Below, one piece after another: positions 36,852 through 62,000 of a DNA stretch of 64,000 nt. A program made the translations under genes and the position numbers. A model generated the notes under the pieces. It did not search any database, had not been told where the DNA came from, and saw nothing but the letters and a program-made list of their open reading frames with translations. This DNA comes from Balanoglossus misakiensis (lineage: Eukaryota; Animalia; Hemichordata), in contig CM082586.2 in assembly GCA_040954595.2 (NCBI GenBank), positions 5,504,509 through 5,568,508 of the forward strand, read 5' to 3'. The first letter of the stretch is position 1. Each line of letters begins with the position of its first letter.

Positions 36852-39800
36852 TCAAATGGTCTGACCTGTGACCTCGCCAGGTGTTTGTTCGTCATCATTT
36901 GCCGAAGGCTCAATTTCGCGAACAGTGGGCTTTTCTTGGTGACGTTGATCACTTCTTGGCAACATCGATGGTTCTGTCAACTCTCCGCGCATGTCTTTCT
37001 CCTTGCGGTTTTGTTGGAGGCAACTCTCCTCAGACACCTCGCTCTGCTTGGCTAGTTCCGCTGTGTTCTCCGATATTCTCTCAAAATTCTGTGTTGACGT
37101 CTGTGTTGACCCCTCCTGCAGTGCAGCATTGAGGTCAACGGATCTCAGTTGCCACGATAGTTCAGTCTGAGTTTCCTGCTCCCTTTTGATACCTTCAAAT
37201 TTTCGTGGAATTCCATCCAAACATTCCAACCGGTTTACAATTTCGTTCATCCGTTCGTTGGTCTTGATCATCTGTTTTTCGAAGCCGTCCATTCTCAACA
37301 GTATGTCGCACTGATTCTTCTTGATTTCTTCAAGTTGACATTGAATATCAGGGGTGGGTGGCTGTTGGAATCTTTGCGTAATCCCAGATGCGCCAAATAG
37401 GCTTTCTGAAATAGCATCCGGTAGGTTGCGGAAGTATTCATGGTATTGGTAATTATCCACCGTATCAACTGATGGGGTTGAATAGTGTTGGGGTGAAACA
37501 CTGGTGTCCTCCGGTATAATTTTCTCAGGGGAAAGTGTTCCTTTGTCAGTGCAGAGCGAGGCATAGTTGGTAAGCTCTTGTGGATGCGATACAATTTCTT
37601 GCTGACCCTGTTGCTGCTGCTCTTGATGCTGCTGTTGTTGATGCTTCTGTGGTTGTTGTTGCTGTTGTTGATGCTTCTGTTGTTGTTGTTGCTGTTGTTG
37701 TTGATAATGCTTCTGTTGTTGTTGTTGCTGTTGTTGATGCTTCTGTGGTTGTTGTTGCTGTTGTTGATGCTTCTGTGGTTGTTGTTGCTGTTGTTGATGC
37801 TTCTGTTGTTGTTGTTGCTGTTGTTGTTGATAATGCTTCTGTTGTTGTTGTTGCTGTTGTTGATGCTTCTGTGGTTGTTGTTGCTGTTGTTGATGCTTCT
37901 GTTGTTGTTGTTGCTGTTGTTGATGCTTCTGTTGTTGTTGTTGTTGCTGTTGTTGATGATGTTTCTGTTGTTGTTGTTGTTGTTGTTGTTGTTGATGCTT
38001 ATTTTGTTGTTGTTGCTGTTGTTGATGCTTCTGTTGTTGTTGTTGTTGCTGTTGTTGTTCATGCCTCTGTTGTTGTTGTTGTTGCTGTTGTTGATTCTTT
38101 TGTGGTTGTTGTTGCTGTTGATAACCTAATGCTTGTGGCATTATATCGGAATATTGTGTTAAAGTTTTCACCAACAATGTGTAGGAAATGTGTGGGCAAT
38201 GAAAAAATCTACTATCTACTAGAAATTAAAGTTGCCTCTGTTCCATTCTGGTTCGAAAAAGTTTCCTTAACCCAGTTGCCATGCCAATTACAAAAACACC
38301 CCCAAATCTTTTATTAACTTTGATATGGTTTTATAGCAGTAGATAGTTCTGTGTTTTATTAATTTAACAAAGACTATAATACCGTGTTCAAATGATGAGT
38401 ATTAACAGTTTATTGCTTCAGTAAATGAATCATGCTAAACCCAACTTTATTAAAGGCGTTTAATGATAACCCGACGTGGACGCGATGTTTTCTACATACG
38501 AATTCAAAATATCATGTCTACCATGTGTTTTAATGTATGAGTATTTGTTATTGTCTAAATCTGTTTAATCTGTATGGTAACTGCGTTTGTTCAGTCCGTT
38601 GTTAATAAAGAGAATAGTAGAACTTTTGCTGCATATCGAAATGATGACCATTTTAAAGATGGAGAGAATGCAAAACTATAGTTTGGACAAGAAAACTTAC
38701 GATAGTCTTTTATGCGATCATTCAGGGTCTCCTGTTTGTCTGAAATTGCAAAAAGAAATTATCAGCCACATATCACCATGGCTTGGGAGAATGACCTGTG
38801 TTTTTTGAAAATGAAAAATGGCAAAAATAATAGGTGGACAAATAAAATATCAGAGTAACAAGAAAAAATAGTACACTTACGTATATCAGAAATGTTTGCC
38901 GCATAAGCAGAGTACAGCCTAAGAAACCACTTTGTCCCATTTCTAGCACATAAATCTTCCAGCTTTTCGCCAGTGAATTCACTGTGATCATCCTTCATAA
39001 GTTTTAACAGGTATCCCTGCAGTATTTCATACAACGATTTATCCGTGCATGTTTCGTCGATCATGGGCAACACACATACACTCCCTACTGTAGAAAGAAA
39101 GCAAATGTCGACATTATCATGTGGAAGTTAAGTTGGGTTGGGTTGCTCTTACCTATAGGCTAGCTTAAAATGCACATTCCGTTTCTCAGTGTCATCGTAT
39201 AGACATTTTTGTCGCGATGTACTTCTACTGCATTATTTGCAATGATGCACTATTGAGCAATTACACTTTGCGCCTAATTTGACTTGCTGGGAACTTCGTC
39301 ACGTGGGATCCAGACAGGACGACCCTCCTTCTTTTTCAGACTTTCTTCCGAACAGTCACACTTCCTGTCTCGAGTAAGGAGTATCAATCGAACCTGTACG
39401 AAAAACTATGATAATGTAATAGAGTATAAAGGCTACAACAAAAAGAGAAATACATCAAACTCACATTGTTTGTTTATATCTGCAATAGTATTCATACATT
39501 CCTTACAGTGGCAGAACCAAATCAGCCGGTCGCATTTCGATTTCGACATGAAGGAAAACCAAGATCCCTGATTGGATGAAGGAATCTGACTTACTAGCTG
39601 ATACAATTCATCATAGTTTGTACCTATCTTGCAGACCTCAGTCTTTGACGAAGTCTTTCTGTCGTAGAATGTCGTTAAGATGTTCTTGACTTTTTGGTCC
39701 TTTGTGTTAGGAAAAAGCATCGTATGACGCCCTTCGATGAGGTGGGATTTTGTATCGAATTCCTCTGTCTGGAACAGTAGAGTGTGAGATTCCAGATGTT

Positions 39801-40887
39801 CCTTATACTGTTTACGCTGACTGTCATTCCCAATTACCAATAGGTTGCATTCGCACACCATTCTGGGGAAGATGACCATTTCTTCGAAATATCTCCTTAT
39901 GGCAGTTTTTTGCGTTGCGTTAAATTCCTGCCAGAGAGAAAAACATCTTCCCTTCGCTGCAAGGCAACCTGCGAATCTATCCCTGTACGACCAAATTTTC
40001 AGAAAATGGTCAGAAACAATTTTGCCGTCTGCTAATTCTTCCGATTTTTCGTCGCCATAAAAGACGACCAGAAAGGAACCTGAAAATTAGAGGCGATGTG
40101 TTGCAGGTTAATGGTTTAGAATAATTCGTAACGTATTTATTTAAAAACAGTGCAAATTTGTTCTTTTGAGCTGAGAATACTATTCTGCGAATTTTAAATG
40201 ATCTCAGAGTCTAAAATCAATGGATTCGTAGTATGAACTTGAAAAACGAAGATACCTGCTCTCTATGCTCACACCCGTACATAATAAACAACAATTTGTA
40301 TGGAAATACATGTACAATCATTGAGCCAATCAGGTGCAATTGTGTGGGGTCTCATAATATTATCTCCATGATTGAAAACTTGATACATACTGTATTTGCA
40401 TTTGGGGTGGCCGTTTTCACAACCCAGGTGCAGATATTGCAAGCTGGCTGTAATCAGCCATTCACAGGCTCTTGTTTATACCACATGTAAAGGGCGCCAC
40501 ATACACAGTTACTATACCTATGATTGGGGTGTATTTCAATTGGAACTCTTATCACTGACTTCGCGTTATAAATCTGCGCACGGTTGAATCATATAACGTA
40601 CCCCGGGGCTTTGACACGGTCGTGGACAGCTCTTTGAGATCATCCCAGTGATCAACTGATGGGTCGCTGTCGGTTGGAGTCAGGAGGGCCCTCGTTTGCC
40701 TTGTATCTAAAACCACAACAGGAGTCACGGCGCTAAACTGCTCGTTCCTCTGCGGAGACGAATCCCTGGTGTACGTGTCGATAATGCATGTCATGTCACC
40801 TAGGATTTCTTTCAGTTGGTCTTTCACCATATCGTGGGCCTGTTGAAATGACTCAAATTTCGTGCAAACGAGGACTCGCTGCTCCAT
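36852..40887 (-). CDS. Uncharacterised multidomain protein: TIR-like alpha/beta domain, degenerate GTPase-like domain, helical region, polyQ tract and coiled coil
   Basis: Exons 40887-40602, 40079-39465, 39087-38881, 38739-38701 and 38218-36852 have canonical GT-AG sites, all phase 1, and join into one open frame. The first two exons are clearly paralogous to the 54097 gene (RQTR.L.TP...VDHWD.L; W.EFN..QK). Joining of exons 2-5 is inferred. Confidence 0.6.
37605..38122 (-). repeat. Coding CAA/CAG-rich repeat encoding ~170 aa of (Q)n-K-H units
   Basis: Repeated tgttgttgatgcttc units on the plus strand; in-frame polyQ on the minus strand within ORF 36852-38177. Confidence 0.93.
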
Positions 40888-41296
40888 TGTCTGGTGTCCG
40901 AGATTCCTGTGAACAAACAGAACATTTTTTCTTGTGTCAACTTGAGCGTCATAAATTTAGTCAAGTTTAGACAACTATTTGTACATCCTTACCTCTCACC
41001 GAAGGAAAATACTTCAATTCGCAGTTGTTCGCATATACGTCACCCACAAGCAATGCTATTGAATACACAGGCCTCAAACTACATGTACGAAAGCGCTGAC
41101 ATGGTTGGCAATCTCCTCCCAGTTCAAAGGTTAAATTGCAAATGAAAAACAACTACAAAGGTTAAAATGCAAATGACAAACAACTACAACTGAACCGTTC
41201 AGCTTAACAAGTTTTGTATCAGTATACCTGGCAGTGTCGAGAAGCCCCGTGCTGTACCTACGTCCATTATTATTTGATAGAAACTATATTCCAGCT

Positions 41297-44200
41297 ATGA
41301 CAAGCAACCTGATTTCGGTCCACGTGAAGAACTGTCGCGGGGGTAACGCGCTAGTCATAGAGTGCAAGGAATCGGAAAAAGTCAGCGATCTAGCGGCCAA
41401 ACTACATAAGAACGCCACACTGTTTGACATAAGTCCTGACGACATTAATCTGAACATACTGGACATCTACCAACCGCTCTCCAGTGGCAAGAAAAAATTG
41501 GAGTTCTTTGACCGCATCGCAAAACTGCGCGAAAATGACTATTTGGTGGAATTCGATCACCATCCCATTGAAAGTAAGTCGCTCATGCAAGACACATATG
41601 ACAAAGCGGTATGTCGCTATTGATAAGCACAATTTTTGTATAAAAAGCCAAACTTGATAATTGTCCCGAATCCCGGCCATTTCGCTGTATTTAACCGTCC
41701 GTAATTAAACCGCCCAAACCGTGAAGTTAAGTATTACATATCAAAGACAAAAAGGAAAAACACGTAGAGTTTTTTGCGGTTCTATATAAACAGTTAGACT
41801 TAAGAAATTGCGTTTGATGTGATCAACGCAAACTCACATTATGACACGGTTTCCACGTTTAGAACAAGAAATCAGAGTCAAGTACATTAAATCGATCAAT
41901 CCTATCAAGATCCGATGTGGCATGGACGACGCCATTTGTGATTTGTCGAACATCATTTCCACAAAATTGGGCGAATTCCCACTTGCGAGTGAAGAACGTG
42001 AACAAATTCAGGCGGAAGGAAGCGAAATACAGTTATTCCACCAGACGTCAGATGGGTCCCTGGAACCATTAGATCCCTTGCAAGAAGTCTCCAAGTTGCC
42101 TAGAAAGTATGTGGTATTTGATGTCTTGACACACGAGATGAAAACCCGTCGTGGAAAAAGTAAGTCTGGTGTTATCATCAATACGTTCTACATAAAGGTA
42201 TGGCTTTGTCGCATTTTAGCAATGAATATCCATAACCCAAAAATAAACGAGTGAGTCCTCGAGCTCGTCTCACAGGTGTGACCTTTTCGTATGTACAGTG
42301 TTGAACGGGTTGAAACTGTTGCCATTGGAGATTACCTTGCATTTTCCTTTCACCAAAATGCAAGGAAGACTTATACAGGTGTTATGCATTTTGATATGCA
42401 ATTCCTTTCTAATAAATTTTGTTTACTTTTTAATTTAAGGTAGTTTGCGTCTTGGGGACAGATTTTCACAAACATAATAGTCCTCCAAAATAAACCTTTC
42501 AATTCTTTGCAATATTAAAATGTGTGGGGCTTCTTTTTGTAAATACAGAAAACAGGATGTTCAGCGTTTCGTTTTATTCAAATCGTTTTATTTTTTTTCC
42601 CGTAGAGTTAACATAGAGATTGGTGGCCATTTTGAAGTTTAAGACAATGTTGATTTCTCATTAAAACATGACGGTGGCCCAAAAATTTTATTCTCAATTT
42701 CAAGAGAGGATAATCTCAGGTGTCCTTGAGCAAAATATGAGAGGTGCGTGCTACCTTGACTGGCCTCATTCTACGCCTGTCGGAGCAGGACCATAGACTG
42801 ATAGTATGCACACCCCCAATTAGTTCATACTTAAAACATTTATTTGCAGAAATCAAGTTATATGTCAAGCATTCAACCTCCAGACACACTGGGGTTATAG
42901 ACTGCTGGGAAAAGGACACAGTCGCGGATGTAATTAAACACATTAAGAATGGCGTCGATCGTTTCGGGTTGCTTGACACCAGAGATATGGATGACCCCCA
43001 AAAAATTGTTGTTTTGGTTAAACCTGGCCAAAAAGCAGGCGATGTCCCTGTAACACTCGAGCCGTACGATACGGTTGGTGATCTCCGAGACCAGATAGTG
43101 GAATTTCGCATGGAAAAGAAACTTTTAGTCGAAAAGGTGATAATCGGTAAGAACAGCACAATTTTATTTCTGTATTAGATTATTGCTGAAAATTTGTTCG
43201 CAGACTCGGTTACATTACAAGGGTTTTACTAAATCTGGGTCAGAGACTGTGATATTGAAATGCGTCCGTGTATTATTTAAGGAGGTACGTTACCATTCAA
43301 ATTTATGTGCGGATATTCATCAAACTAATTTGTCAAAGTACACGGTCAATCTGATCAAAACATTCTTACAGCATTAACATTGATATCTGTGTCATGTATG
43401 GTGGCAGAAAATGTTCATGACGAGCCTTCCATCAAATAAAAAATTGTTCCTAAAATCAAAATTTTTCACCATAATATTTCGGCATCCAGTATTTTTTTTA
43501 CAGGGTATGATGTTTATACTTTAAAACAGTAAGACACGTAGCATGTACATTTTTGTATCAGGCATGGTGCCTGATCAGCCTCATGGCGTTTCGCCTGCAC
43601 AGTCTTTATCTGCACCACATTCAAGTTCATGAAGTTGCTGAAGTTGCCCGTCTGGAAATATGAATGCCAACGTAACTGCGTCTGACGTCATTTGATATCG
43701 AAGAAAAGAACGTCCTGCGGACGTGACGCTAATGGCACAAGACCTGTAATTCACTTCGTAGTCCGTAAAAAAGTAGTGCAATGCCTAATATTTTGAGACC
43801 TGAATTGATGCTCGACAGGATTTACCATGGATATGTAGCATTTTTGAAGAGAGCATTTCGAAATGCATTCAAAATTCCCACTGGTGTGAGAGAATGTGGT
43901 GTAACGTTGTTGTACACAGCGGAATTATGCAAGGTGCATTGACTGCACACTTTGGCATGAATTTTATCAAAATTACCACTGGGGCGCTATTTTGATCTCT
44001 CCCGAAAAAAAATCCATGGATTTGCTAGTCTGGTCCCCTGCCCCAATCCCACCGCTGCGTGGGATTGGGGCAGGGGACCAGACTATTGACTTGCCTGCAC
44101 GAAAATTTAGCCTGTGCACAAATATACCTTGTTCTGACTGCAGTTAATGGGATTCGGCTCGCTGAACGTTACAAAATAGCTCAACGCTACCATTGTCATC

Positions 44201-46192
44201 TATGGAAAATGAATTACATGTTTTGCGCCTAGTCCGTTCCTCATCGAGAGGTAGCAACTGTCATGCATTGAGTCTTAGGATATACCAATGATAGAAGGTC
44301 ACCCAAAGGCGTCCATCCGCAAGACTCATATATGTGCTTCATAGCGCCCGAAGACGGCAGCTGATTGGCGTCGGTCAAACTATTCCGATGAAAATGCCTC
44401 ACAATTTAGTACGTAAAATGGATTTTTAGACCTTTTCACCAAACTATACTTTCAATGTGTGCGATTTCGTGTGTGATTATTTTCAGATGAAATCGAAGCA
44501 TTATGTGTTGGCCAAACGATTGCTTTCTTTGGTGCAGCTGGACATGGGAAGTCTTCAACAATCAACACCATCGGAGAGGTGAGATGTGTTTTCTACACTG
44601 TGTCTGAAATAGACCACTTTCCGAACTCAACGCGACTATGCGAGATCTCGCGAGCGTGGCAACGCAGTTTATATGAGAGGACATTCTCACGTGAAACATG
44701 ACAAACACCACATAAACCGCACAGAAGTTAGTTTAACTCATGCATCTGTTCAAGTTTCACACACAAAGTCTTATTTGTTTCTATTGATGTGCAGCGATAA
44801 TTAACCACGTACCGCGAAATCTCCCAATGAAAGGGAAATCATCTAGTTGCAATGATGTGGTTGACAAAAGCTTGGACACATTAGAATTGTCCGTTTCCCA
44901 TATATACTCCTCAAACACGGTCATGGTTTATGTACACTTTATTTCATTTTTGAGGCCCGGAGAAACCCCAGTGTTATACATGTATTAATTAAGTATTTAG
45001 CCAGACTTTTAGCTAGGTAGCCTACAATGCTTCTCGCCCCAGCTTTAAACATTAGTTTGTTTACCATTTTTGCTGTCTGCGTGTTTCTCAATCGTTTTTA
45101 CTGTGTGGCATAACACATAAAACACGCCCTTCTGCAGGTAATTTTATTTTATTACGAAACTTCAGGACGACTATGTTATACACGACATAGTAAATGTATT
45201 TGCTAAATTAGTAAGAGAAAAGGTCATGTAAAAAGCTTCTAGTATTAGAATTAAATTGTAAATTTTGCAGAATGACTGTGAAGTCGTTCTTGTAGGCCTA
45301 GTGTGCCATTAGAGCCTAGTTCACCGTAAGCTTAGTGCCTGATTTGACACTATCTCGCAGGTTGTGCCCGGTGTAGATTTTCCTCTTGCTGATGTGTGGA
45401 AAGGAACGGCTGCTGGTACAATTGTTATCTCACCGTATGAAATTAAAGTCGGAAGTCACAAGTTCACCTTCCTGGATGTTCCCGGCAACGGATTTCCCGG
45501 GTACGAGTCGCAAAGCGAAGAAAAGGAGACTTGCAATGTCCTTCGATGGATTCTACGGGGGGAATTTCCAAAGGACGCTAAGCCTAATTTCTGGGCGACC
45601 AATAACATGTTCAAATTCAAATCCTGGCTGACCTACATTAGGAAACCTAGCACTGGGAAAGTGCAGATGGCGGTAATAGTACAAAACGCAACTTGTACCC
45701 CGGACAAACTGGGTACTTTAGTGGTTTCCGGGGCAAGACAGGAGAAAGGCAAGTAGAATATCTTATAATAATCGAATGAAAATACACCACATGTATGTGT
45801 GTAGACACACATACACATACAGACACACACAACCCCCCCCACACACACGGCATTACACATTTCGATGCCATTCAGTACATGCAGTAGAACTACCTTCGAT
45901 TTTAGACTTAAGAATTAATTCAGTATTGTCTGTGGAATTTTTTTTTGCAGGAAATGGAATCCCAGTGGCAGCGGTAATGACACATGTTGACAAATTGAAA
46001 GACGACGGCGAACTGCAAAAGAAGATTACTGAACTATCAGAGATTACTGGCATCGACGAAAAATACATATTTCCCATTTCAAACAAGTCGGATAAAGGTG
46101 ACTACCTGAAGGGATCAGAAAGAGGGAACTACGTCCTTTCTATGCTGAAACAAATGTTAGCCAGGTCTAAAAGATACAAGTCCGAATCTTAA
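41297..46192 (+). CDS. IFI44-like P-loop GTPase with three N-terminal ubiquitin-like domains (gene 1)
   Basis: Exons 41297-41573, 41863-42159, 42850-43146 (each a ~95-aa beta-grasp-like unit, phase-1 introns), 44487-44578 (Walker A GAAGHGKS), 45361-45748 (FLDVPG, WILRGEFP, YIRKPS; GC donor) and 45951-46192 (VMTHVD, IFPISN, YVLSMLKQML). Confidence 0.8.
42436..42760. mobile_element. Degenerate non-autonomous DNA transposon (TTAA-flanked, Kolobok-like MITE) in intron 2
   Basis: Left end ttaaggtagtttgcgtc, right end gaggtgcgtgctaccttga (imperfect inverted). A related left end, ttaaggtggtgcgcaccttgtggacagat, occurs at about 10288. Confidence 0.5.
44026..44085. repeat. Perfect 60-bp palindrome (27-bp arms, 6-nt loop), MITE-like
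   Basis: tagtctggtcccctgccccaatcccac-cgctgc-gtgggattggggcaggggaccagacta. Confidence 0.9.
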
Positions 46193-46469
46193 GCAGCTCA
46201 TTTGCCAGAGACAGAGAAAAGCAAACATTTTGAAAACTAAAACGCAAATAGGATTAAACAAACAGACAACAAAGAAACAAATAATAACGCGTTTGAAGTT
46301 AAAACCATTGCTAAGCATGTACCCAAAACATTAATTTATTCAGTAATGTGACAACTGTATAACGCCTGGTCGTACATTGTAATTTGATCGTTGCATTTCT
46401 ATCAGACACTTTTGTGTCATGAATTGAAAGATAATTGCTAAATGCCATAATGCTTTATCGAGTCACGGT

Positions 46470-46830
46470 ATAGCTAGTTTTTAAACGAATGATCATTTTG
46501 TACCAAGAAATGTATTGGTTCTATTATATAATGCTTTTATATTACCTTATAACGTATGGTCTAGAAGTTTGGGGTACTGTATATCCATCTTCCTTGAATA
46601 CTACATTGTGTATTTATATTCCCCCAAAATGTATGTACGGGCAATAACCTTTTCTGGATTTCAAGTGCCCTCTCCATCATTATTCCAGAAGTTGGGAATT
46701 CTAGATGTTTACAAACTTCACAAGTTTCTCGGGGGAATATTCATGTTTGATTTAAAGGAGCAGAAGTTTCCTTTTCCTATACGAAATTACTACGAAAGAG
46801 TACATCATTGTTATGACACTAGAATAGCTA
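46470..46830 (+). mobile_element. Decayed LINE (L2/CR1-like) ORF2 C-terminal fragment
   Basis: LYNAFILPY, LFQKLGILDVYKL..FMF and HCYDTR are typical post-RT LINE motifs, with frameshifts. Confidence 0.65.
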
Positions 46831-47130
46831 TTCTTTGCAAATTTTGTAACGGTCCCTTTCTGTCAGTTTGTTATTCTATCGAAATGACAATTATTTGATT
46901 TGCAACAAACATGGAAGAGGTAAAGGACCATTAACTATTTGCCCATGTTTGCTGTATATTTTATTTGTGTCTCATCGACAATGTACAAATCACATGATAT
47001 TAAACATGTAGTAAGTACAGAAAAATTGAGCACGGTGTGTTGGCTACCGAATTAAGACATCCAAATATAGATTAAAGTAGATTATCAATTCTCAAGCCTT
47101 TGTCAGGTACGAGATAAACAGTTTGATTAA

Positions 47131-47483
47131 TTGCATTGTGTGTCTTTCGATTTGGTCGAGTTCCTAATGGATATTTCCATGGCACCGAATACAAACATGG
47201 TGCACTCCATACAGTTTTCTGTGTTTGTTTTCCGTTTTTTTTCTAGTTATTCATACACATATATATTTCTGAATGTAGATTTGCGTTTAAGCAGTTTACT
47301 TTGATTTTCTCAACTGGTTTTAATTGACTACTAGTATTTCTTGTCTCGTGGCTTCTAAATCTGCAACCAAATAAAACGCTGTGACGTTGCTTTCTCTTTT
47401 GCCTGTTTTTTTTCGTAGAAGGAAGGCTTCGCGGAATCCTGTCAATGCCTTAGTCATCATGGAATGCTACACCGATATCGTAA
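47131..47483. repeat. ~350-bp near-identical direct repeat (copy 1), downstream of UBL-GTPase gene 1
   Basis: ttgcattgtgtgtctttcgatttggtcgag...gctacaccgatatcgtaatg recurs at about 52031-52410. Confidence 0.9.
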
Positions 47484-48539
47484 TGCAAACAGGCTGGCAC
47501 AAACAAATCCTGATTTAAGCTGTTCTAATGAGACCGTTTGTGTCAATGATTTTTTTTTCTTTCAAATTTGGCTGCCCTGGTTATGTCTCTTTAAATTATT
47601 GGGTTGTCAGCCACAGCGTAGAACCGAATATACATGTATCTTTCCTCTATCGTGTATTCGTGTTTCCAATACAAAGAAATCTCTTTGATTTACATCAAAC
47701 CTTCAAGGGAGTGGTAATGGACTATTGGTAGTTTGTCTTTCTTTGCGCCTCATCTACAGTTACTGTACGCAATGTGAACAGAACAATCAGGCATGGTGTG
47801 TTGGCTGCAAAAGTAATACATTAACCATAGCCAGGGTCCCTGCGTTAACCAACTACATTTAAGTAGACCAACTACTCAAGTATGTGTCAGATACGAGATA
47901 AACAGTTTGATTAATTTGTTTTGTGTCTTTTGATAATGGCCGACCTGAATCCTTTGGAGCGATGGCTCCAAATATAAGAGACAATGTTATTCACGCAGAG
48001 CTCTATATTTAAATGCACTTTAACATTTTGCATTTTAACGAATTCGAGCTGTGAAGTAGTACATTACAATAAAATACATTCGACTTTGATTTCTTTTTTT
48101 TCAATTATACAGGAACAAATATAAATAATAAGAAAAATATCATCAACCAGAATTATGTTGGAACAGTCAGAAGAAAGCACCAAAACTCGATGTCTGACTG
48201 TAAATCCGTCCCCAAACTGGAATAAAATGTACAACACAGTTTGCTTTCGCTTTGTTCACTTCGCAGAATTGTTATGTTGGATTTGTGCCATAGCCCTAAT
48301 TACAGTATAGTTTATAACGCAAGCGCACGCATTCCAAAAATTCCCTGATAAAGCGGCGATGGTCGGCTGATAGACAAAGTCTACCCACCACTTTGAATAC
48401 TCAAACTGTAATTTCTACTAACAGGGGCCATAGTACGAACGACCATTCGAACTAAAACAGCATTACTCTGTTTGATCTACTTGATCAGTACACTCGCCGG
48501 GGTCTGTTTGGTGCGCATACGTTTATTGTACCCGAAAAG

Positions 48540-51157
48540 ATGTCTGACAACACTGTAACCGTTATGGTGAAGTATGCCCCTGAAGATGGAAACGCTTTAC
48601 CCATCGAATGTGACGCAGGCGGGACAATTTTCAACCTTGCCAAGGAGATAAAAAGCCAAGCTCACCTGTTCGATCTTCAGGAAAGCGATATCAAATTGCA
48701 GTCTGTCGGGATGTTCACACGTAATGAATCCGGTATGATGGTTCTTTTGAAGATGAATGACAAGATAAAAGACCTGGAACAAAACGGGTGGCAAGTTGAA
48801 TTCAACAACCATTCCAGAGAATGTGAGTACCTTTAATATCAAACAGAGTACACGCGTGCATGTTAGCCTGTGCCATACACATATATTAACCGGGGCCTAT
48901 ATATTAAAATAAATACCACTTAAACAATATTTCTAAGTGTTCAAAAAGACAATGAAAAGGTAGATCGACACTTTTTCAAGAAAACTTTTTTCTACGACTG
49001 TCGTTTTATGATGCAAAACAACGTTAACACTTAGACAAAAATAATATATGAGATAAACTTTGACAAAAAAGAACATATCCTAGGAGCGAGATAATATCGC
49101 AATACAGTACCAGCCTTGTCAATGCTGTATAGAGCATTAAGGTTGTTCTCCTTATACCGGGGTGAGACATTGATTTTTTAAACACGAATTTTTTGCAGGT
49201 GTTAAGATAAATGTGAAACTCAAAGGATCAAGTACTAGAAAACAATTTAGCTTTTCTGAGAAGCAGACGGTTGCAGACCTTATCGAATGTATTATAAAAG
49301 ACATCGGCAACTTCAACCTTGCATCACCTATGAAGGAAGCATTAGAAGCAGGTGATGAAGAAATAGTTGTCTCGCCGATTCCTCCAAATCCTTGGGATTA
49401 TGTGGACACCCTAAGGCCAAGTCAAGTACTTAACACATTGGGCGAAGAAAACTTGCAATTTTTTGTAACACCGAAACGGAAACCACCTTCACTTGGTAAG
49501 CTCCACCCATTTGTCAACTTTACAATTACAGTATATGTTTTGTATATAGCAATCATAGAAAAGATTTTACTTTCGGACTCCATTTAAATGATTTAACTAG
49601 TGTGTAACCGCTGATTGTGGCATGTAAATTAATGTGAACACGTTAAATAATAAATGGGTGCCTCACCCGTTATTCAACTGCCAATTGCAAGAGTACACAA
49701 CTATCGTGGTATGTGCATATGGATATTAAAAAGAGTCAAAATAGTGTCATTTGTTGACTAAGGAGAAGATTGATGTATTTTATTGATTAAAAATATGATA
49801 AAAGTGGCAGCTATTTGCGCTTTAAATGCATCCTTTTTTCTATACCATAACTTGCAGAACAACGTACACGTCACATCACTATCTGCAATATATATCCTTT
49901 ATGATTTCTACATGTGTGCTTGTTCATTTGTTTGTTTTCCCTAGACGACCTATCTAAACTGTGTGTTGGTCAAAATATTGCCTTTATTGGCGCATCTGGC
50001 CACGGGAAGTCAACAACCATAAATACAATCGTAAAGGTAAATGAAAGTTTAATTTTCATGGGATTGGACTATGTAGATAAGCATTTTGCAGAGAGTTACT
50101 TTTATTGGATATTCTGAAGTTAAAATCTGCATTGTTGCACTCAGCAATTATATGAAACATGGTAAGAGATCGGATCCACTATTTTCATGATGTGACTTGA
50201 GTACGTAACCCGTTTATTACCATGTGTTACCAACCGGACGCGGAGACTTACATTTCTAAACCTCAGCGTTTATACCTTAGGCTAGCACTAGCTGCCCTGA
50301 TACCACACCCATTATGACGACCCAAATTCGAGATTTTAGTACTAGAGCGGCATGATAACAGTACGTCCACTTTTCTTCGTTTTCCAGGCTTTGGGCGGAA
50401 AAACGACTATTGCGGAGACGACCGCTGGCGCTGCAACAGGCACACATATTGTGACCCCTCACGATGTAACGATAAAAGGAAAACCCTTTCGAATCATTGA
50501 TGTTCCCGGTATCACCGTGAAGCTAAGCCCCGACAGCAGCAAGGTGGTAGAAAAACAAATCCGTTATATTCTAGATGGCAATTTCCCAGAAGAATTCAAA
50601 ACAGACTACTGGGAGACCTCTTATAAATTTGTAAGATGGTGGAAATACATGAAGAGCACTAGTATCGGCAAAGTTGACGCTGTCATCATCATACACAAAG
50701 GCACAGCTACAGCAATAGATCAAGTTGCAAGTATTGCTACAAATGTGGCCCTGACTATAGGTAATGTTTGTTCTTGTTTAAGTTAATGTATGTATAGTGA
50801 AGGAAACAAAATGTTATTCTTTCTCAAATTGGACTGTTATATACATAAATGTTGTTACTTTTTATATACATTTTCTATAATTTTTGTATTTATACAGGTA
50901 GAGGTATTCCCATTTTTGGCATTCTTACACACATGGACCTATTGGATGATGACGCCAAGAAAAGGGAAAGTAAGGAAACGTTGTCGGTAGGGGCCAATAT
51001 CGATGTGTGCAACATCTTTCCTCTGTCCAATCTGCAGCAAGAAGCTGGATCGAGAAGTCATGGTGGAAAAGACAGGGATGAATACGTGCTGACCATATTT
51101 GAGACTATTCTACATAAATCCAAGAATGCCAAAACAAAGGGCCAGGTCGGGATATAG
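48540..51157 (+). CDS. IFI44-like P-loop GTPase with two N-terminal ubiquitin-like domains (gene 2)
   Basis: Exons 48540-48822, 49199-49495, 49945-50036 (GASGHGKS), 50388-50760 (IIDVPG, YILDGNFP) and 50898-51157 (ILTHMD, IFPLSN, DEYVLTIFETIL); intron positions and phases in the GTPase part match gene 1. Confidence 0.82.
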
Positions 51158-52017: not shown

Positions 52018-52030
52018 AGTTATATGTCAA

Positions 52031-52480
52031 TTGCATTGTGTGTCTTTCGATTTGGTCGAGTTCCTAATGGATATTTCCATGGCACCGAATACAAACATGG
52101 TGCACTCCATTTAGTTTTCTGGGTTTGTTTTCCGTTTTTTTCTAGTTATTCATACAAATATATATTTCTGAATGTACGTTTGCGTTTAAGCAGTTTACTT
52201 TGATTTTCTCAAATGGTTTTAATTGACTTCTAGTATTTCTTGTCTCATGGCTTCTGTACCCTATCTTTAACTGTTAAAGCTAAATCTGCAACCCAATAAA
52301 ACGCTGTGACGTTGCTTCCTCTTTTGCCTGTTTTTTTTCGTAGATGGAAGGCTTCGCGGAATCCTGTCAATGCCTTAGTCATCATGGAATGCTACACCGA
52401 TATCGTAATGTGTCAGATACGAGATAAACGGTTTGATTAATTTGTTTTGTGTCTTTTGTTTCGTGACCGACCTGAATCCT
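52031..52480. repeat. Direct repeat copy 2, downstream of UBL-GTPase gene 2
   Basis: Matches 47131-47483, then 47884-47950. Confidence 0.88.
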
Positions 52481-54096: not shown

Positions 54097-56232
54097 ATGT
54101 TTGCAAAACCAAAACATTACGTATCAGTCGAAACTAAGCTCGGTAGCTTTCGCACAGCAGGGGGGAAAGTCAGAGGCCTCCTCGAGTCAATATTGACAAA
54201 TGATTTCCTGGTGGAGGAAAATGGCGCAAAGCGGAATGACCTCAGTAACTTTGCCAGTAAATCAGCGGTTATAGTGATCGACGCCAGGCAGACACGTAGT
54301 CTCTTCACCCCGTCGCGAAGAGACGCGAACGTCGATCACTGGGACGAACTTGACCAACTGACCTACTCGTTCACTTTCCCAAAAGGTAAGGCTATTCTGT
54401 CATTGTCTGTACACTTGGAAAAAACGCGCAAGTATGAAAAGATCGACCGTGAAACTAAAAGGAATAAACAGAAACAGCATTGGGACGTTGGTGTCTAAAA
54501 TTTACAGCAGGACGATGGTCCTATATAGCTTGTAACTAATTTGCTCTTGAATTGAATGGCCGGGGTCGACGCCAGAAGTTAAACTATTCGGAACTTACTA
54601 ATCGAAACTAAACTCTATTTTAAAGAAAAACATTGTTTCTCTAAACACAGGTTCCGTGCTTCTTGTTATCTACGCGGATGAGAAATCCAAACGTTTAGAA
54701 GACCTGTTTTCAGAGAAATGGAAGAAGGTTTGGCATTCTAATGACGGCATCGCCTACAGTCTAGCAGAAAGAAGACGTTGCATTACAATGTGGGAAGAAT
54801 TCAACAGCAAACAGAAGGAACGCTTGAAAGAATTTTTCCAAACGGAAGTTCCTCTGTTTACCTTTTACGAGACCCAGCTTAACCAATGTTTTGATCAGAA
54901 GAGTCGCTTGCATCGCTTTGTTCGGTGGTTTGTTCGTTCGATTCGCAGAGTTTCTGATTTTCAAACTGTCCTCGTCATTGGAGCTGGTGAGAAAATTCCA
55001 GAAAACCTCTGTCAATATTTTCAGCTGAATCCATTCTTCAGTAGTTCCAGTGAAAACGACGAAACATACCAAGCATACGAGACCAGATTCCACCAGCCCT
55101 CTAAGCCAAAAATCGTTAAGGTGTATCAGGTCGTGCTCCCTGTTGAAGCCAGCCAACATTACAGGGAAGCTCCAAACGTGATGATTGAGAAACTCCGACC
55201 GTCAATCAACGACCTCACCATACTCAGATTCAGAAATGGCTTGCCAAATATCCCAAGAGTAAGGCAGGTTGTCCAACGCATCTTCAGCTGGGTATGGAGT
55301 CCACTGCGCGGTGCCTTGGCACTGAATATACCGGGCGGTTTCTTCATTCGACCTTTGACTTACGATGCATTACTACATGTCGCTGACAGCGAGGAATGTT
55401 TCGTTGACGCTGTTGATGGGATCGACGAGGTTACCCAAAGCTTCAGTAAGTTACAAATATGTTTACTGCTGGGAAATTTTCATGAGAATGCCAACAACAT
55501 GACAATTTACTTTGTAACTTGGGATAAAACGTGACAGTTTTAGCGTGCTGGCAGGGTATGCTTATGCTATTCTGTAAACGTGGAACTGCGACGTAGTGTT
55601 GGATGGCTCTTTTGCAATTCGCGTTCATTTATTCATTTCTTTGACCTGGTAAATTAAAATTATAACGCCCATCCGACATTTTTGCAAACATATAACCTCC
55701 AACTCGTTAATCCAGCAAAATGTGAGCAGGGAATATACCGAGTTACATGATATAAGGCAAAAAACTGCTATGTGCTGTTCCGATTACATGGATTTCAAAA
55801 ATAAGGTAGATAGGTAGGGAAATTTTTTATTTTGCAATTTTTTTATATCATTGGCCGCCGTAGTGTAGAAGAATGACGTCACAGTTCTTGTGTGATTCTC
55901 GCAATTTTCACAAGTTTTTGTACATTTCACATTGTTTGTTTTCAATTTCCGGTGTAGGAAGCTCGAAAAAGTATAGGATCGGCGGGCTAAAATTAGGGTA
56001 GTTCGGGTAATCGGAACAGCACATATTTTTTTATTTGGTCTAAACCATATTCGTCTGTTATCTACTGCTATTAAAATCATATTCTTGTTCATATTTTATA
56101 GAAGACGCTGGTGTCATTTCCATTGGCAACGCCATTCCTGTGGTTCCAGATGGCAGCACTTCTACAAAGAGAGTTGCTCAGAAAGTGGATGAGTTCTTTT
56201 CTGGTCCTAACCAGTCACAGTCGGTAGTATAG
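54097..56232 (+). CDS. Uncharacterised protein: TIR-like domain plus degenerate GTPase-like domain (paralog of the 40887 gene)
   Basis: Exons 54097-54385, 54651-55445 (strong gtaagt donor; read-through would stop at 55534) and probable 56102-56232. Same phase-1 intron positions as the paralog; AVIVID..HWDELDQL..VLLVIY pattern. Confidence 0.65.
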
Positions 56233-58410: not shown

Positions 58411-59058
58411 TACCATAAACACACCATTTGGACCTGTGACGGGTTAAGGTCGGTAACTTTATTGTCTGCTGGTACACATTTTATTAATAGATTTAGTGTG
58501 TTATTGCTTTAGAATATCACATTAGCCACCCACTAATGTTATTAATATATTGATGGTGTTATTGTATTTACAACATACAATTGCGACCATAGTTCTTCAA
58601 TAGATACTCCGCGGACAATAATCCACCGTACCAAACAATTGCCCCCATCATATCCCTCACTCAAGCCCTAAATCGTTGACTGGGAAATGTTCGGGTTAGT
58701 AATGTCCAGGGGTAACTGTTATATTGTCTCTAACACATGTTACAACGATTGTTTCAAATAAAGAGTGTATTGCATTCGGAACCAGTTGTCGTTCACTCAT
58801 CGGTTGTTGAAGATTCTTGGTGGAATGATCGAGATGGATGTGGAGCAGATAGAATCGGGGCGTATTTGTCTATATCACGTGCAAATATAATTATTATTAT
58901 GTATTCATCGGTTATTCATTGCACCGAAAATGTACAACCACAAGGAAAATGTGAGAATAAATTTAATCTGTAATTTCGCTTGCTTAGGGAGTCTTCATTC
59001 AATTACCGAGTGTTAAAATAGAACGTACGTGCCATATGCGTATATTTTGGTTCCAACC

Positions 59059-62000
59059 ATGGAGTGGAGTAACGCATCGCTGGCTCATTCTTGGGGTGCA
59101 GATAGAGATGTGGGAAAGACAGAAGATAAAGAAAACAGATACAAGAGTTTATTACGAAATGTTATGAGCAATTCGTCAGTCCACGGTCTGCCAAATATCC
59201 ATCGAGCTAAAAGTGTACCAAAGCGAATGTTTTGGACAGTATCCTTTCTCGCTGCTGTGGGCGTGTTTCTTGGACTCAGTTCAGATTTGGTTATGAAGTA
59301 TTACGACTTCGACGTCAATATAGGCGTGGAAATTATCTCTGAGCGGGAGCTGCAGTTCCCTGCTGTGACTATATGCAATATAAATCCCCTGCGAAAGTCA
59401 TTCCTGAGCGAAAGACAATCATTACAGCTACAGTCTATGTTACGGAGACCGGAGAAACCGAAAAACGACCAAGAAATGATGAATGTTAGCAACTCGAGTG
59501 AACAGGTAAAAATAATCAATCAACAAAACCGGAATTGTTTTGTAATGTTAAGATATGCAGCAATATCGTGTAATAAACTCGGTCATTTGTGTTCTGGTAA
59601 AAATATATGAATTGTGAATTATTTAAAACCAAAGTGCAGATCGATGTTTGCAGGTTACTTTCGAGATCTTATTATGACAAAGAAATTCTAATCTTGTTTA
59701 TTGCATTGTTGTACTGTAATCTAAATGACGTTTTCCTCTAACTCATGACGTTAGCAAACTGTGCAAGGTGCGTCATTGGCATTTAGTCATCATGCAAAAT
59801 TGTTACAGTTTTAGTTTATGTTATGACGTCATTTGTTTACCTGCAACACTGTGTATTGACGTGTTAAAATATTGCAAGTCACAGGTCAGATTGTAAACTT
59901 ACTGGTTTCGGCGGTTCGATGGTAGATGAATGTGAGGTCTTCTGTTAATTTGCATAATTGCTTTAGCATTGAACATATGTTCATCTTACGATCATAGTCT
60001 TTATACATCCCATATTTTTTGAAGATTAATAACGTCATATATTTAGAAATCGTTCCTTGTTTCATTCACTTCTTCCTATGTCTGTTTGGTATCATGTTTG
60101 TCAATTGTATATTACACCTGTGAGTCACTCCAACTTTAGGATAATGCTACAACTGTTTTATATTGATGTAAGTAGCGCCAGAATGAGGAGACAGTTAGTG
60201 AGTACAACTACTGGGACACCTTCAGGGAGGAAGCCTATACATCGCCACATCAGTCGTGGATAATCAGTCAACTCGTTCAAGAATTCCAAGCTGATATGAC
60301 GCCTGAACAAAGGAAAGCAATTGGTCACCAATTACAAGATTTACTCTTCAGCTGTCGATGGAACGACGTAGAATGTGCACCTGAGTAAGAAGTCATTGCT
60401 TTGACCATTTCACCCCCACTTCCCTCTATAGAGGTTTAACTTTACCACAGAAAACAATGGATTTGGACCAAACCATGGTGGTGAAAGGGTTGAAGTACGA
60501 TTCAAAGTGCCTTTTTACCCATCTCATGTTTTGAATGCGTAAAAGGGTCGGCGAATAAGGAAATTTCCCATGAGGTATGCACTTTGTATGTTAAGCTTTG
60601 CAAGACGTGGGTTATATGCCTAAATGATAGGCGTTAACGTTATATTTTTGTTTGCAGTAATTTCACAAGCTTTCTTAATCCGACATATGGCAACTGTTAT
60701 ACTTTCACCGGTGCAAACGGTACTTCAACTAAAACAACGTTTCCTGGATCTGTTTATGGTAAGTCAGTGTACCATAACTTTTTATTGCTTATACAAGACA
60801 GATTAGGAAAATATGAAGGTCTTTCCCTTGCTGGCTTTGATCGGACTTGCTTTTTGTACACTCATGGAAAGTTGAGATCTAGCTAATCACTGCCCGGCCA
60901 AAAAACCGCCATTCGAAGACTTAGACATATATTTAAACCACATATGGGCATGTGTTAATCATTGATAATTGTATACCCTTTATAGGGCTGTCTTTGGGGT
61001 TGTTTGTGGAACAATCGGAATACTTGGACAACTTCACTGACTCCGCTGGAGTTAGAGTGACCATCCATCCACGAGACGAATTCAATTTCCCGGAAGACTC
61101 GGGCTTTGATATCGAACCAGGAAAAATGACGTCTGTCAGCATAATGATGGTACTAGTTTAGCCAATATAGACAAATATGTGACCACTATCACAAGTTTGA
61201 TTTCCATGACAAATAAAACTTTATCATGAAAACTAGTAATATATGTCTAAACGCATATACTTTTGATACATTTGTGACAGATGTGATATACATCTAATAC
61301 TTTCCGTCTATTACAGGAAAAACATACTCGACTACCTGGCGTGTACAGTAGGTGCGTCTTTTACGATGATCCCAATCATACATCTGCATTTGGAGCATTA
61401 TACTCAATAGATGTAAGAAACATTTTTGTCAATAAACCTCAAAGGGTGGGTGTAGTCCCGTTTGCGGCCGCGGGCCGAATGGTTGTCCTGGGACACATTT
61501 GCTACAATGTCAAAATTAGGCGCAAAGTGTAACTGCTACATACAATGTAGTGTACCATGATCACAGCCGACAATTCGGTTGTTACTTTGTATGACACAGA
61601 CAGTACTGTAACAAATCATGGCAAACAATGTGTCGTTACTTTTTATCACGCTTCCAATTTACTTTCATATAAATGTATTGGTTGACGGGGTCTCCCTGAC
61701 CAATGGGAACAATCCGTTTATAACATTAAATTGCGCATGTGCAGTTCAGACGACCCTCTCCCTTTAAAGCCGCTTCTATAATGCTATATCGCAATACGTG
61801 CCATTGTCTGTTGTACAACATATACTTATAGCCACTTCAATACCGTCTGTTTTTCTATTCATAGTATCGGCCTCAATTTCCTGTTAATAACTTAAAGAAA
61901 AATAGACTATTGAATTTAATTTAATTTACTCCGAATCAAAATGTTGAAGTTCAATAATTTTGTAATTAATACACACAGTGATTATCATTGTAACCATTGT

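Follow-up and report, generated by a model that had tools for sequence, protein, structure and literature searches.

Two tandem genes of the acorn worm Balanoglossus misakiensis encode members of an apparently undescribed family, in which one to four divergent, predicted ubiquitin-like units are joined to an IFI44-related G domain. They are located at positions 41297-51157, on the plus strand, of the stretch of DNA analysed here (the window; 64,000 nucleotides [nt], contig CM082586.2, positions 5,504,509-5,568,508, forward strand). Gene A (530 amino acids [aa], 6 exons) and gene B (434 aa, 5 exons) are intact paralogues with 29% protein identity across 441 columns. The reading we favour, which as a whole has in our judgement about an even chance of being right, is that of a tandem family with an IFI44-related G domain behind predicted ubiquitin-fold, non-conjugated docking units, acting as a GTP switch and probably serving in immunity or stress. 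Kinship of the G domain with IFI44 is, taken by itself, held with high confidence. The family is not canonical IFI44, because it has no TLDc domain, and it represents a variant within a modular family rather than a new class of system. No fusion of ubiquitin-like and IFI44-type domains is described in the titles and abstract openings of the IFI44, hemichordate and ubiquitin-like literature, subscription journals and InterPro architectures being outside this scope.

The exons of the two genes are as follows.

Gene A, exon 1: 41297..41573, plus strand; ATG and class I beta-grasp unit, from its own model, the unit profile and the unit tree.
Gene A, exon 2: 41863..42159, plus strand; class II beta-grasp unit, 297 nt, phase 1-1, ending in an RRG linker, from the orthologue model, unit profile and tree.
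Gene A, exon 3: 42850..43146, plus strand; class III beta-grasp unit, 297 nt, phase 1-1, from the orthologue model and a Pfam OTU1_UBXL match under the cut-off.
Gene A, exon 4: 44487..44578, plus strand; G1/P-loop (GxxGHGKS), from splicing and the G-domain alignment.
Gene A, exon 5: 45361..45748, plus strand; G2 Thr, G3 (DVPG) and post-G3 insert, with a GC donor, from splicing and the G-domain alignment.
Gene A, exon 6: 45951..46192, plus strand; G4 (THxD), G5-like SN, C-terminal helix and stop, from splicing, the orthologue model and the alignment.
Gene B, exon 1: 48540..48822, plus strand; ATG and class I beta-grasp unit, from its place in the unit tree.
Gene B, exon 2: 49199..49495, plus strand; class III beta-grasp unit, 297 nt, phase 1-1, from its place in the unit tree.
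Gene B, exon 3: 49945..50036, plus strand; G1/P-loop, from splicing and the G-domain alignment.
Gene B, exon 4: 50388..50760, plus strand; G2, G3 and post-G3 insert, from splicing and the G-domain alignment.
Gene B, exon 5: 50898..51157, plus strand; G4, G5-like SN, C-terminal helix and stop, from splicing and the G-domain alignment.

The open frames were obtained by joining exons at consensus splice sites, with intron phases of 1,1,1,0,1 in gene A and 1,1,0,1 in gene B. All introns are of the GT-AG type, with the sole exception of the GC-AG last intron of gene A (donor at 45749-45750), and the G-domain introns occupy identical positions in both genes. The three internal unit exons, 297 nt apiece, are of symmetric 1-1 phase. 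An earlier interpretation based on the sequence alone (the sequence-only reading) had listed five N-terminal units and a series of GTPase motifs, all of which are found in the spliced frames; its phase-1 boundaries of the unit exons also hold, except that it bounded the first unit on the 3' side only, and a CAG at 41292-41294, two bases 5' of the gene A ATG, is compatible with a phase-1 acceptor there as well. The RefSeq protein XP_070533643 of Ptychodera flava (database record P0012, 530 aa) is colinear with gene A end to end at 64% identity, which gives independent support for the gene A splicing. An artefact or pseudogene was rejected in view of the open frames, the intact motifs and the colinear orthologues. 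When the window was scanned with profiles in six frames, the only copies recovered were the five units and six G-domain exons listed above.

The model of the first unit of gene A (predicted local distance difference test, pLDDT, 83.5) has the strand-strand-helix-strand-strand-strand order of a beta-grasp fold. When it was compared by VIA with 48,161 solved chains, the best 50 rows were all, by title, ubiquitin-superfamily folds or fusions (Z 9.5-11.0, root-mean-square deviation 1.8-3.3, identity 4-18%); they are effectively tied and include FERM, OASL Ubl, ubiquitin, FAT10, ISG15, RA domains, PI3K ABD and Rad23. The full-length orthologue model (pLDDT 81; predicted template modelling score, pTM, 0.50) consists of three beta-grasp units and a G domain, and a Foldseek search of PDB with it placed linear polyubiquitin and USP7 UBL arrays at the top, followed by GIMAP2 and Toc34. 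For units 2 and 3 of gene A and both units of gene B the beta-grasp fold is predicted by profile homology, not from models of their own. The units fill the N-terminal 290 aa of the orthologue model, the position of TLDc in IFI44 and IFI44L, and no Pfam TLDc or TLD match was found in the window exons or the relatives scanned. The beta-grasp units proposed earlier are supported, at the level of prediction. In sequence the units are highly divergent. No Pfam family passed its cut-off for the window units; among 11 units scanned the matches, which bear on the RA/RBD, UBX, Crinkler-header and FERM F0 subtypes, are sparse and weak, each in one or two units and under cut-off, the best being OTU1_UBXL (E 0.00028, two units), with PI3K_rbd and RBD in one each. 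Unit profiles found no significant ubiquitin-like chain among PDB sequences, and the units match no ubiquitin family profile. Conjugation, already thought improbable on first inspection, cannot take place with the units as they stand, because none of the 43 unit ends in the family carries GG. An RG linker ends 5 of 11 middle units and follows a predicted helix (residues 184-189 in the orthologue model), for which its Gly may serve as a cap.

The 43 units were counted in 16 proteins (genes A and B and 14 relatives, leaving out near-duplicates, an isoform, fragments and a repeat artefact), of which ten have three units, four have two, one has four and one has a single unit. In the unit tree, first units form one clade (99/99), and middle and last units fall into several supported groups whose joins are unresolved. 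The two units of gene B cluster with units 1 (99/98) and 3 (95/99) of the three-unit P. flava proteins P0002, P0016 and P0017; its second unit is therefore the counterpart of the third, not the second, unit of gene A. Neither a class II exon nor any trace of one is present in the 376-bp first intron of gene B, whose middle unit exon was therefore most likely lost. Two proteins in the databases repeat this pattern alongside sisters with three units, and the isoforms P0004 and P0015 differ by one unit (in both cases by database gene models). The three-unit layout is already present in three acorn worm genera. The sequence-only reading had taken three units against two as a sign of exon shuffling; symmetric phase-1 exons do fit such an origin for the family, but the copy difference is best explained, from the unit relationships, as exon loss within an old family and not as fresh shuffling.

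The named close relatives are all 'uncharacterized' acorn worm proteins of three genera, with one to four units each. A profile built from the two middle exons of the G domain, searched against 1.84 billion representatives at E<=0.001, gave 11 matches, of which P0011 was excluded as a tandem-repeat artefact; the ten retained are from Ptychodera flava (6), Glandiceps talaboti (3) and Saccoglossus kowalevskii (1). Two word-index searches, which reach only candidates with short words in common and leave the range beyond acorn worms open-ended, added six acorn worm records; their much weaker matches were an AIG1 protein and a GTPase, both unnamed, together with an IFI44-like protein of anchovy (E 0.037, 81% cover). 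One contig carries 11 of the 12 P. flava records, and another all four of Glandiceps, consistent with tandem clusters. Exon 5 of gene A, used as a word-index query, found no relative among 222 candidates, and none was confirmed by G-domain alignment among metagenome contigs (55 pattern matches) or viral contigs (49); in BFVD, ubiquitin-array rows and GTPase rows were separate, none clearly spanning both parts. Two further records deserve mention. The Saccoglossus protein P0014 (XP_006825315, 268 aa) has units and no G domain and is near-identical to the N-terminus of P0013; a stand-alone unit protein or a broken gene model are possible. P0022, an unnamed GTPase fragment without a Pfam match, is the top scorer of the three outliers (AIG1 protein, GTPase, IFI44-like); it has G1, the helix before it and the segment after G3 in common with the acorn worm family, and by this resemblance may be a non-hemichordate relative.

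The G-domain motifs are strongly conserved in the 16 proteins: GHGK of G1, including Lys, in all (16/16), the G2 Thr in 15/16, and the G3 Asp/Gly, G4 Thr/Asp and G5-like Asn in 16/16. GxxxxGKS at G1 and T-x-x-D at G4, which characterize IFI44 and IFI44L, are both present, and neither they nor GHGK are IFI44-specific. Gln never follows G3, which reads D[VIF]PG, and no Arg is invariant. The distance from G3 to G4 is 95-101 residues in 15/16 rows (the sixteenth being a regex mis-hit), as against 62 in the AIG1 protein; IFI44L has 97, and the long segment is an IFI44 feature as derived from this one IFI44L sequence. The AIG1 protein lacks the ~35-residue post-G3 insert, and the half of the domain after G3 reaches 21.0 bits with IFI44L, compared with 10.3 for AIG1. 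In an Atlas predicted-structure search with orthologue residues 290-530, the best 10 rows are led by two TLD-bearing mollusc clusters, include four named IFI44 or IFI44L, and include none named AIG1, GIMAP or Era (template modelling [TM] score by query 0.76-0.81, query and targets being predicted models). By features, an IFI44-like Atlas cluster ranks third (0.95), and with gene B exon 4 every row is below 0.9, one IFI44-like cluster reaching 0.80. An IFI44-like G-domain fold is predicted from these models. VIA rows for the full model are generic G domains (Z 12.5-15.3) and do not discriminate.

From these features a mode of action may be proposed. The G domain would bind GTP and Mg, and hydrolysis would occur on pairing of G domains, because there is no Gln after G3 and no invariant Arg; this step is modelled on GIMAP, Toc34 and septin-type GTPases, in which G-domain pairing is reported to control hydrolysis (PMC9111091, PMC5084822). 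The units would stand in for TLDc as a partner- or site-selecting head, most plausibly by binding readers of ubiquitin-like surfaces, and this head would be tuned as entire 1-1 exons are gained, lost or skipped in frame. An exchangeable head is supported by the occurrence of IFI44-type domains behind immunoglobulin (Ig) domains, in the anchovy protein XP_063062068 (P0023) and a 72-member chordate Atlas cluster. The TLDc of IFI44 itself has been called putative, with 15% identity to other TLDc domains (PMC5614904). The job would probably be cytosolic innate defence, as IFI44 kinship and tandem expansion suggest. Human IFI44 is reported to restrict respiratory syncytial virus (RSV; bioRxiv 2020.02.24.963900), oyster IFI44L to combine TLDc with MMR_HSR1 and to be abundant in blood cells (PMC11682996), and IFI44 to be expanded in anchovy (PMC13403563). 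In marine invertebrates, TRADD-N is described as fused to AIG/GBP GTPases and to polyubiquitin, with IFI44 unmentioned in the portion of that source covered (PMC8195603). In one supplement of a Saccoglossus poly(I:C) study (PMC10210618), other than its gene tables, there is no match for the two Saccoglossus loci (LOC100376846 and LOC102804920) or IFI44.

Several results weigh against the favoured reading. The first unit of gene A is tied among Ubl, RA/RBD, FERM and ABD folds, with VIA Z within 1.5, so that the partner class of the units is not fixed. Whole-domain bit scores do not separate IFI44L (38.6) from the AIG1 protein (39.6) and the unnamed GTPase (42.9); hhalign likewise ties them (97.5%, 97.1% and 97.2%); and the G-domain profile search returned no IFI44 at E<=0.001 among its representatives. 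The residue after G3 is Ile or Leu in only 2/16 proteins, at a position where IFI44 has a hydrophobic Leu after DxxG according to Busse et al. (bioRxiv 2020.02.24.963900), and the tree, with only one IFI44L row (branch 5.2), has unresolved forks. The IFI44 type assigned by the sequence-only reading is thus upheld by the predicted-structure neighbours and the G3-G4 spacing and not by sequence score, the residue after G3 or the tree, and its choice of D.PG as an IFI44-like motif was mistaken, the single available IFI44L sequence having DSMGL there. As to function, the G1 region of human IFI44 is reported to be dispensable for RSV restriction (bioRxiv 2020.02.24.963900), so that activity need not depend on a GTP switch; for one IFI44 of amphioxus, down-regulation by poly(I:C) is reported (PMC5752451); and interferon regulatory factor (IRF) elements are not enriched upstream of gene A (0 sites in 1.0 kb) or gene B (1 in 2.3 kb; background 0.34/kb).

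Four other explanations were considered. The units might be modules of RA/RBD type whose partner is a GTP-loaded G domain, that of small GTPases in trans or their own in cis, giving a self-regulated or signalling GTPase, which we regard as unlikely. SHANK3 SPN (10.7), PLC-epsilon RA (10.3) and RALGDS RA (10.2) tie with the Ubl rows in VIA, the PI3K_rbd and RBD matches agree with this, and the related GTPase GIMAP6 is reported to bind the ATG8 protein GABARAPL2 with a dissociation constant of 40 nM; however, every Pfam match is under its cut-off, the low pTM of the full-length model means no confident docking of units on the G domain, and the unit adjoining the G domain is no more conserved than the others.

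Alternatively, the array might be an integrated decoy that mimics polyubiquitin or ISG15-type chains; binding or cutting of the array by proteases, deubiquitinases or ligases of pathogens would then trip the GTPase. A decoy or sensor role for pathogen deubiquitinases or proteases had been offered as speculation in the sequence-only reading. The protein would then be an intracellular immune receptor of acorn worms, with an IFI44-type GTP switch and a ubiquitin-mimic array baiting pathogen deubiquitinases or proteases, and exon gain, loss or skipping would vary the bait; both forms of this proposal are improbable. The head-to-tail array resembles linear ubiquitin chains in fold, RG linkers end some of the middle units, and tandem expansion with unit gain and loss would suit a bait, as would unit identity not exceeding that of the G domain in all 23 of 23 orthologue and paralogue comparisons. 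Against this, the unit ends lack GG, the linker Gly may be a helix cap, sequence matches to ubiquitin profiles or PDB chains are missing, identity to ubiquitin-fold structures is as low as noted above, and lower conservation of non-enzymatic domains is ordinary and no evidence of an arms race.

Third, the units might form a degron built into the protein, or an address for the proteasome or p97, of FAT10, Rad23 or UBX type, which makes the GTPase short-lived or delivers bound cargo for destruction. This has a similarly small chance: FAT10, Rad23/hHR23, Dsk2, Herp, BAG6 and one UBX row are among the VIA rows and OTU1_UBXL is the best Pfam match, but the VIA support consists of ties, and there is no sequence similarity to FAT10, Rad23 or UBX-type proteins. 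Least probable is that the G domain branched off independently from AIG1/GIMAP- or EngB/Era-like GTPases and bears only a generic likeness to IFI44, as the tied sequence scores, NCBIfam YsxC/EngB matches in 11/11 members (best E 1.4e-8), the D[VIF]PG form of G3 and the rank of GIMAP2 and Toc34 as first G-domain rows in PDB might suggest, since the YsxC match of the first member covers G1-G3 only with 34 bits against an equivalog cut-off of 124, Pfam AIG1 stays below its cut-off (best E 0.006, 5/11 members at E<=0.1; 65 bits and E 6.8e-18 in a true member), the Era KH domain has no match in Pfam scans, AIG1 lacks the post-G3 insert, no IFI44 entry surfaced in any PDB search so that PDB ranks cannot show IFI44 kinship, and Atlas puts IFI44 clusters at the top.

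The favoured IFI44-related architecture may be compared with known systems. With IFI44 and IFI44L of vertebrates and molluscs, which consist of TLDc and a G domain, the family shares the layout of head plus G domain, lineage-specific expansion as reported for IFI44, a predicted G-domain fold (TM about 0.8), and G1, G4, G3-G4 spacing and a C-terminal helix that align across 211 columns. It differs in carrying one to four beta-grasp units in place of TLDc, in wanting the Leu after G3 in 14/16 proteins, and in being about 25% identical to the single IFI44L compared. The anchovy protein XP_063062068 also joins an IFI44-type G domain to a non-TLDc head; this head is an I-set Ig domain, and its hydrophobic C-terminal tail is missing from the acorn worm family. 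AIG1/GIMAP, Toc34 and septin-type GTPases are the nearest solved G-domain folds by Foldseek and likewise have no Gln after G3; in contrast to the acorn worm proteins they lack the post-G3 insert, and no ubiquitin-fold head was seen on them. Tandem beta-grasp units occur also in OASL, the USP7 UBL array, FAT10 and ISG15. The best parallel among them is OASL, an immune enzyme that carries tandem Ubl domains; the acorn worm units are N-terminal and longer (about 92-98 aa, with an extra helix), without diGly, have a GTPase as partner and show no detectable sequence relationship.

Genes A and B are flanked by a pair of genes paralogous to each other, at 39436-40888 on the minus strand and about 54097-55534 on the plus strand, with 37% and 40% identity in two exon pieces and an identical intron position. 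No Pfam family passes its cut-off on them and PDB gives no match; they look TIR-like in their alternating strand/helix pattern, judged by eye only. The minus-strand gene and gene A lie head-to-head, with start codons about 410 bp apart, and a 457-aa open frame at 36852-38225 (minus strand), with a long Gln/His/Lys-rich repeat and no Pfam match, may be a downstream exon of this minus-strand gene. A dispersed repeat of ~380 bp (90% identical) precedes and follows gene B at 47129-47485 and 52029-52410, with shorter copies near 35.6-36.3 kb. Elsewhere in the window, several copies of subtilase exons are found at 22.7-34.3 kb (Pfam S8 on one), and an ENaC/degenerin exon (Pfam ASC) is listed for 1-34300 and 59017-59610. 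The region near 1-10 kb presumably encodes a VPS13B-like C-terminus, and that near 12-15 kb what we take to be a GH9 cellulase-like gene.

Among interferon-response genes IFI44 and IFI44L are well known, and their mechanism is ill-defined at the biochemical level. The present analysis names an unannotated, expanded acorn worm family and a divergent ubiquitin-like domain that escapes every Pfam model. If the array were indeed bait, it would constitute an animal integrated-decoy system on a GTPase. More generally, the presence of TLDc, Ig and tandem ubiquitin-like heads on one type of G domain points to a family built of modules, with the head selecting the target and the G domain common to all, and this view provides a testable frame for IFI44 itself.

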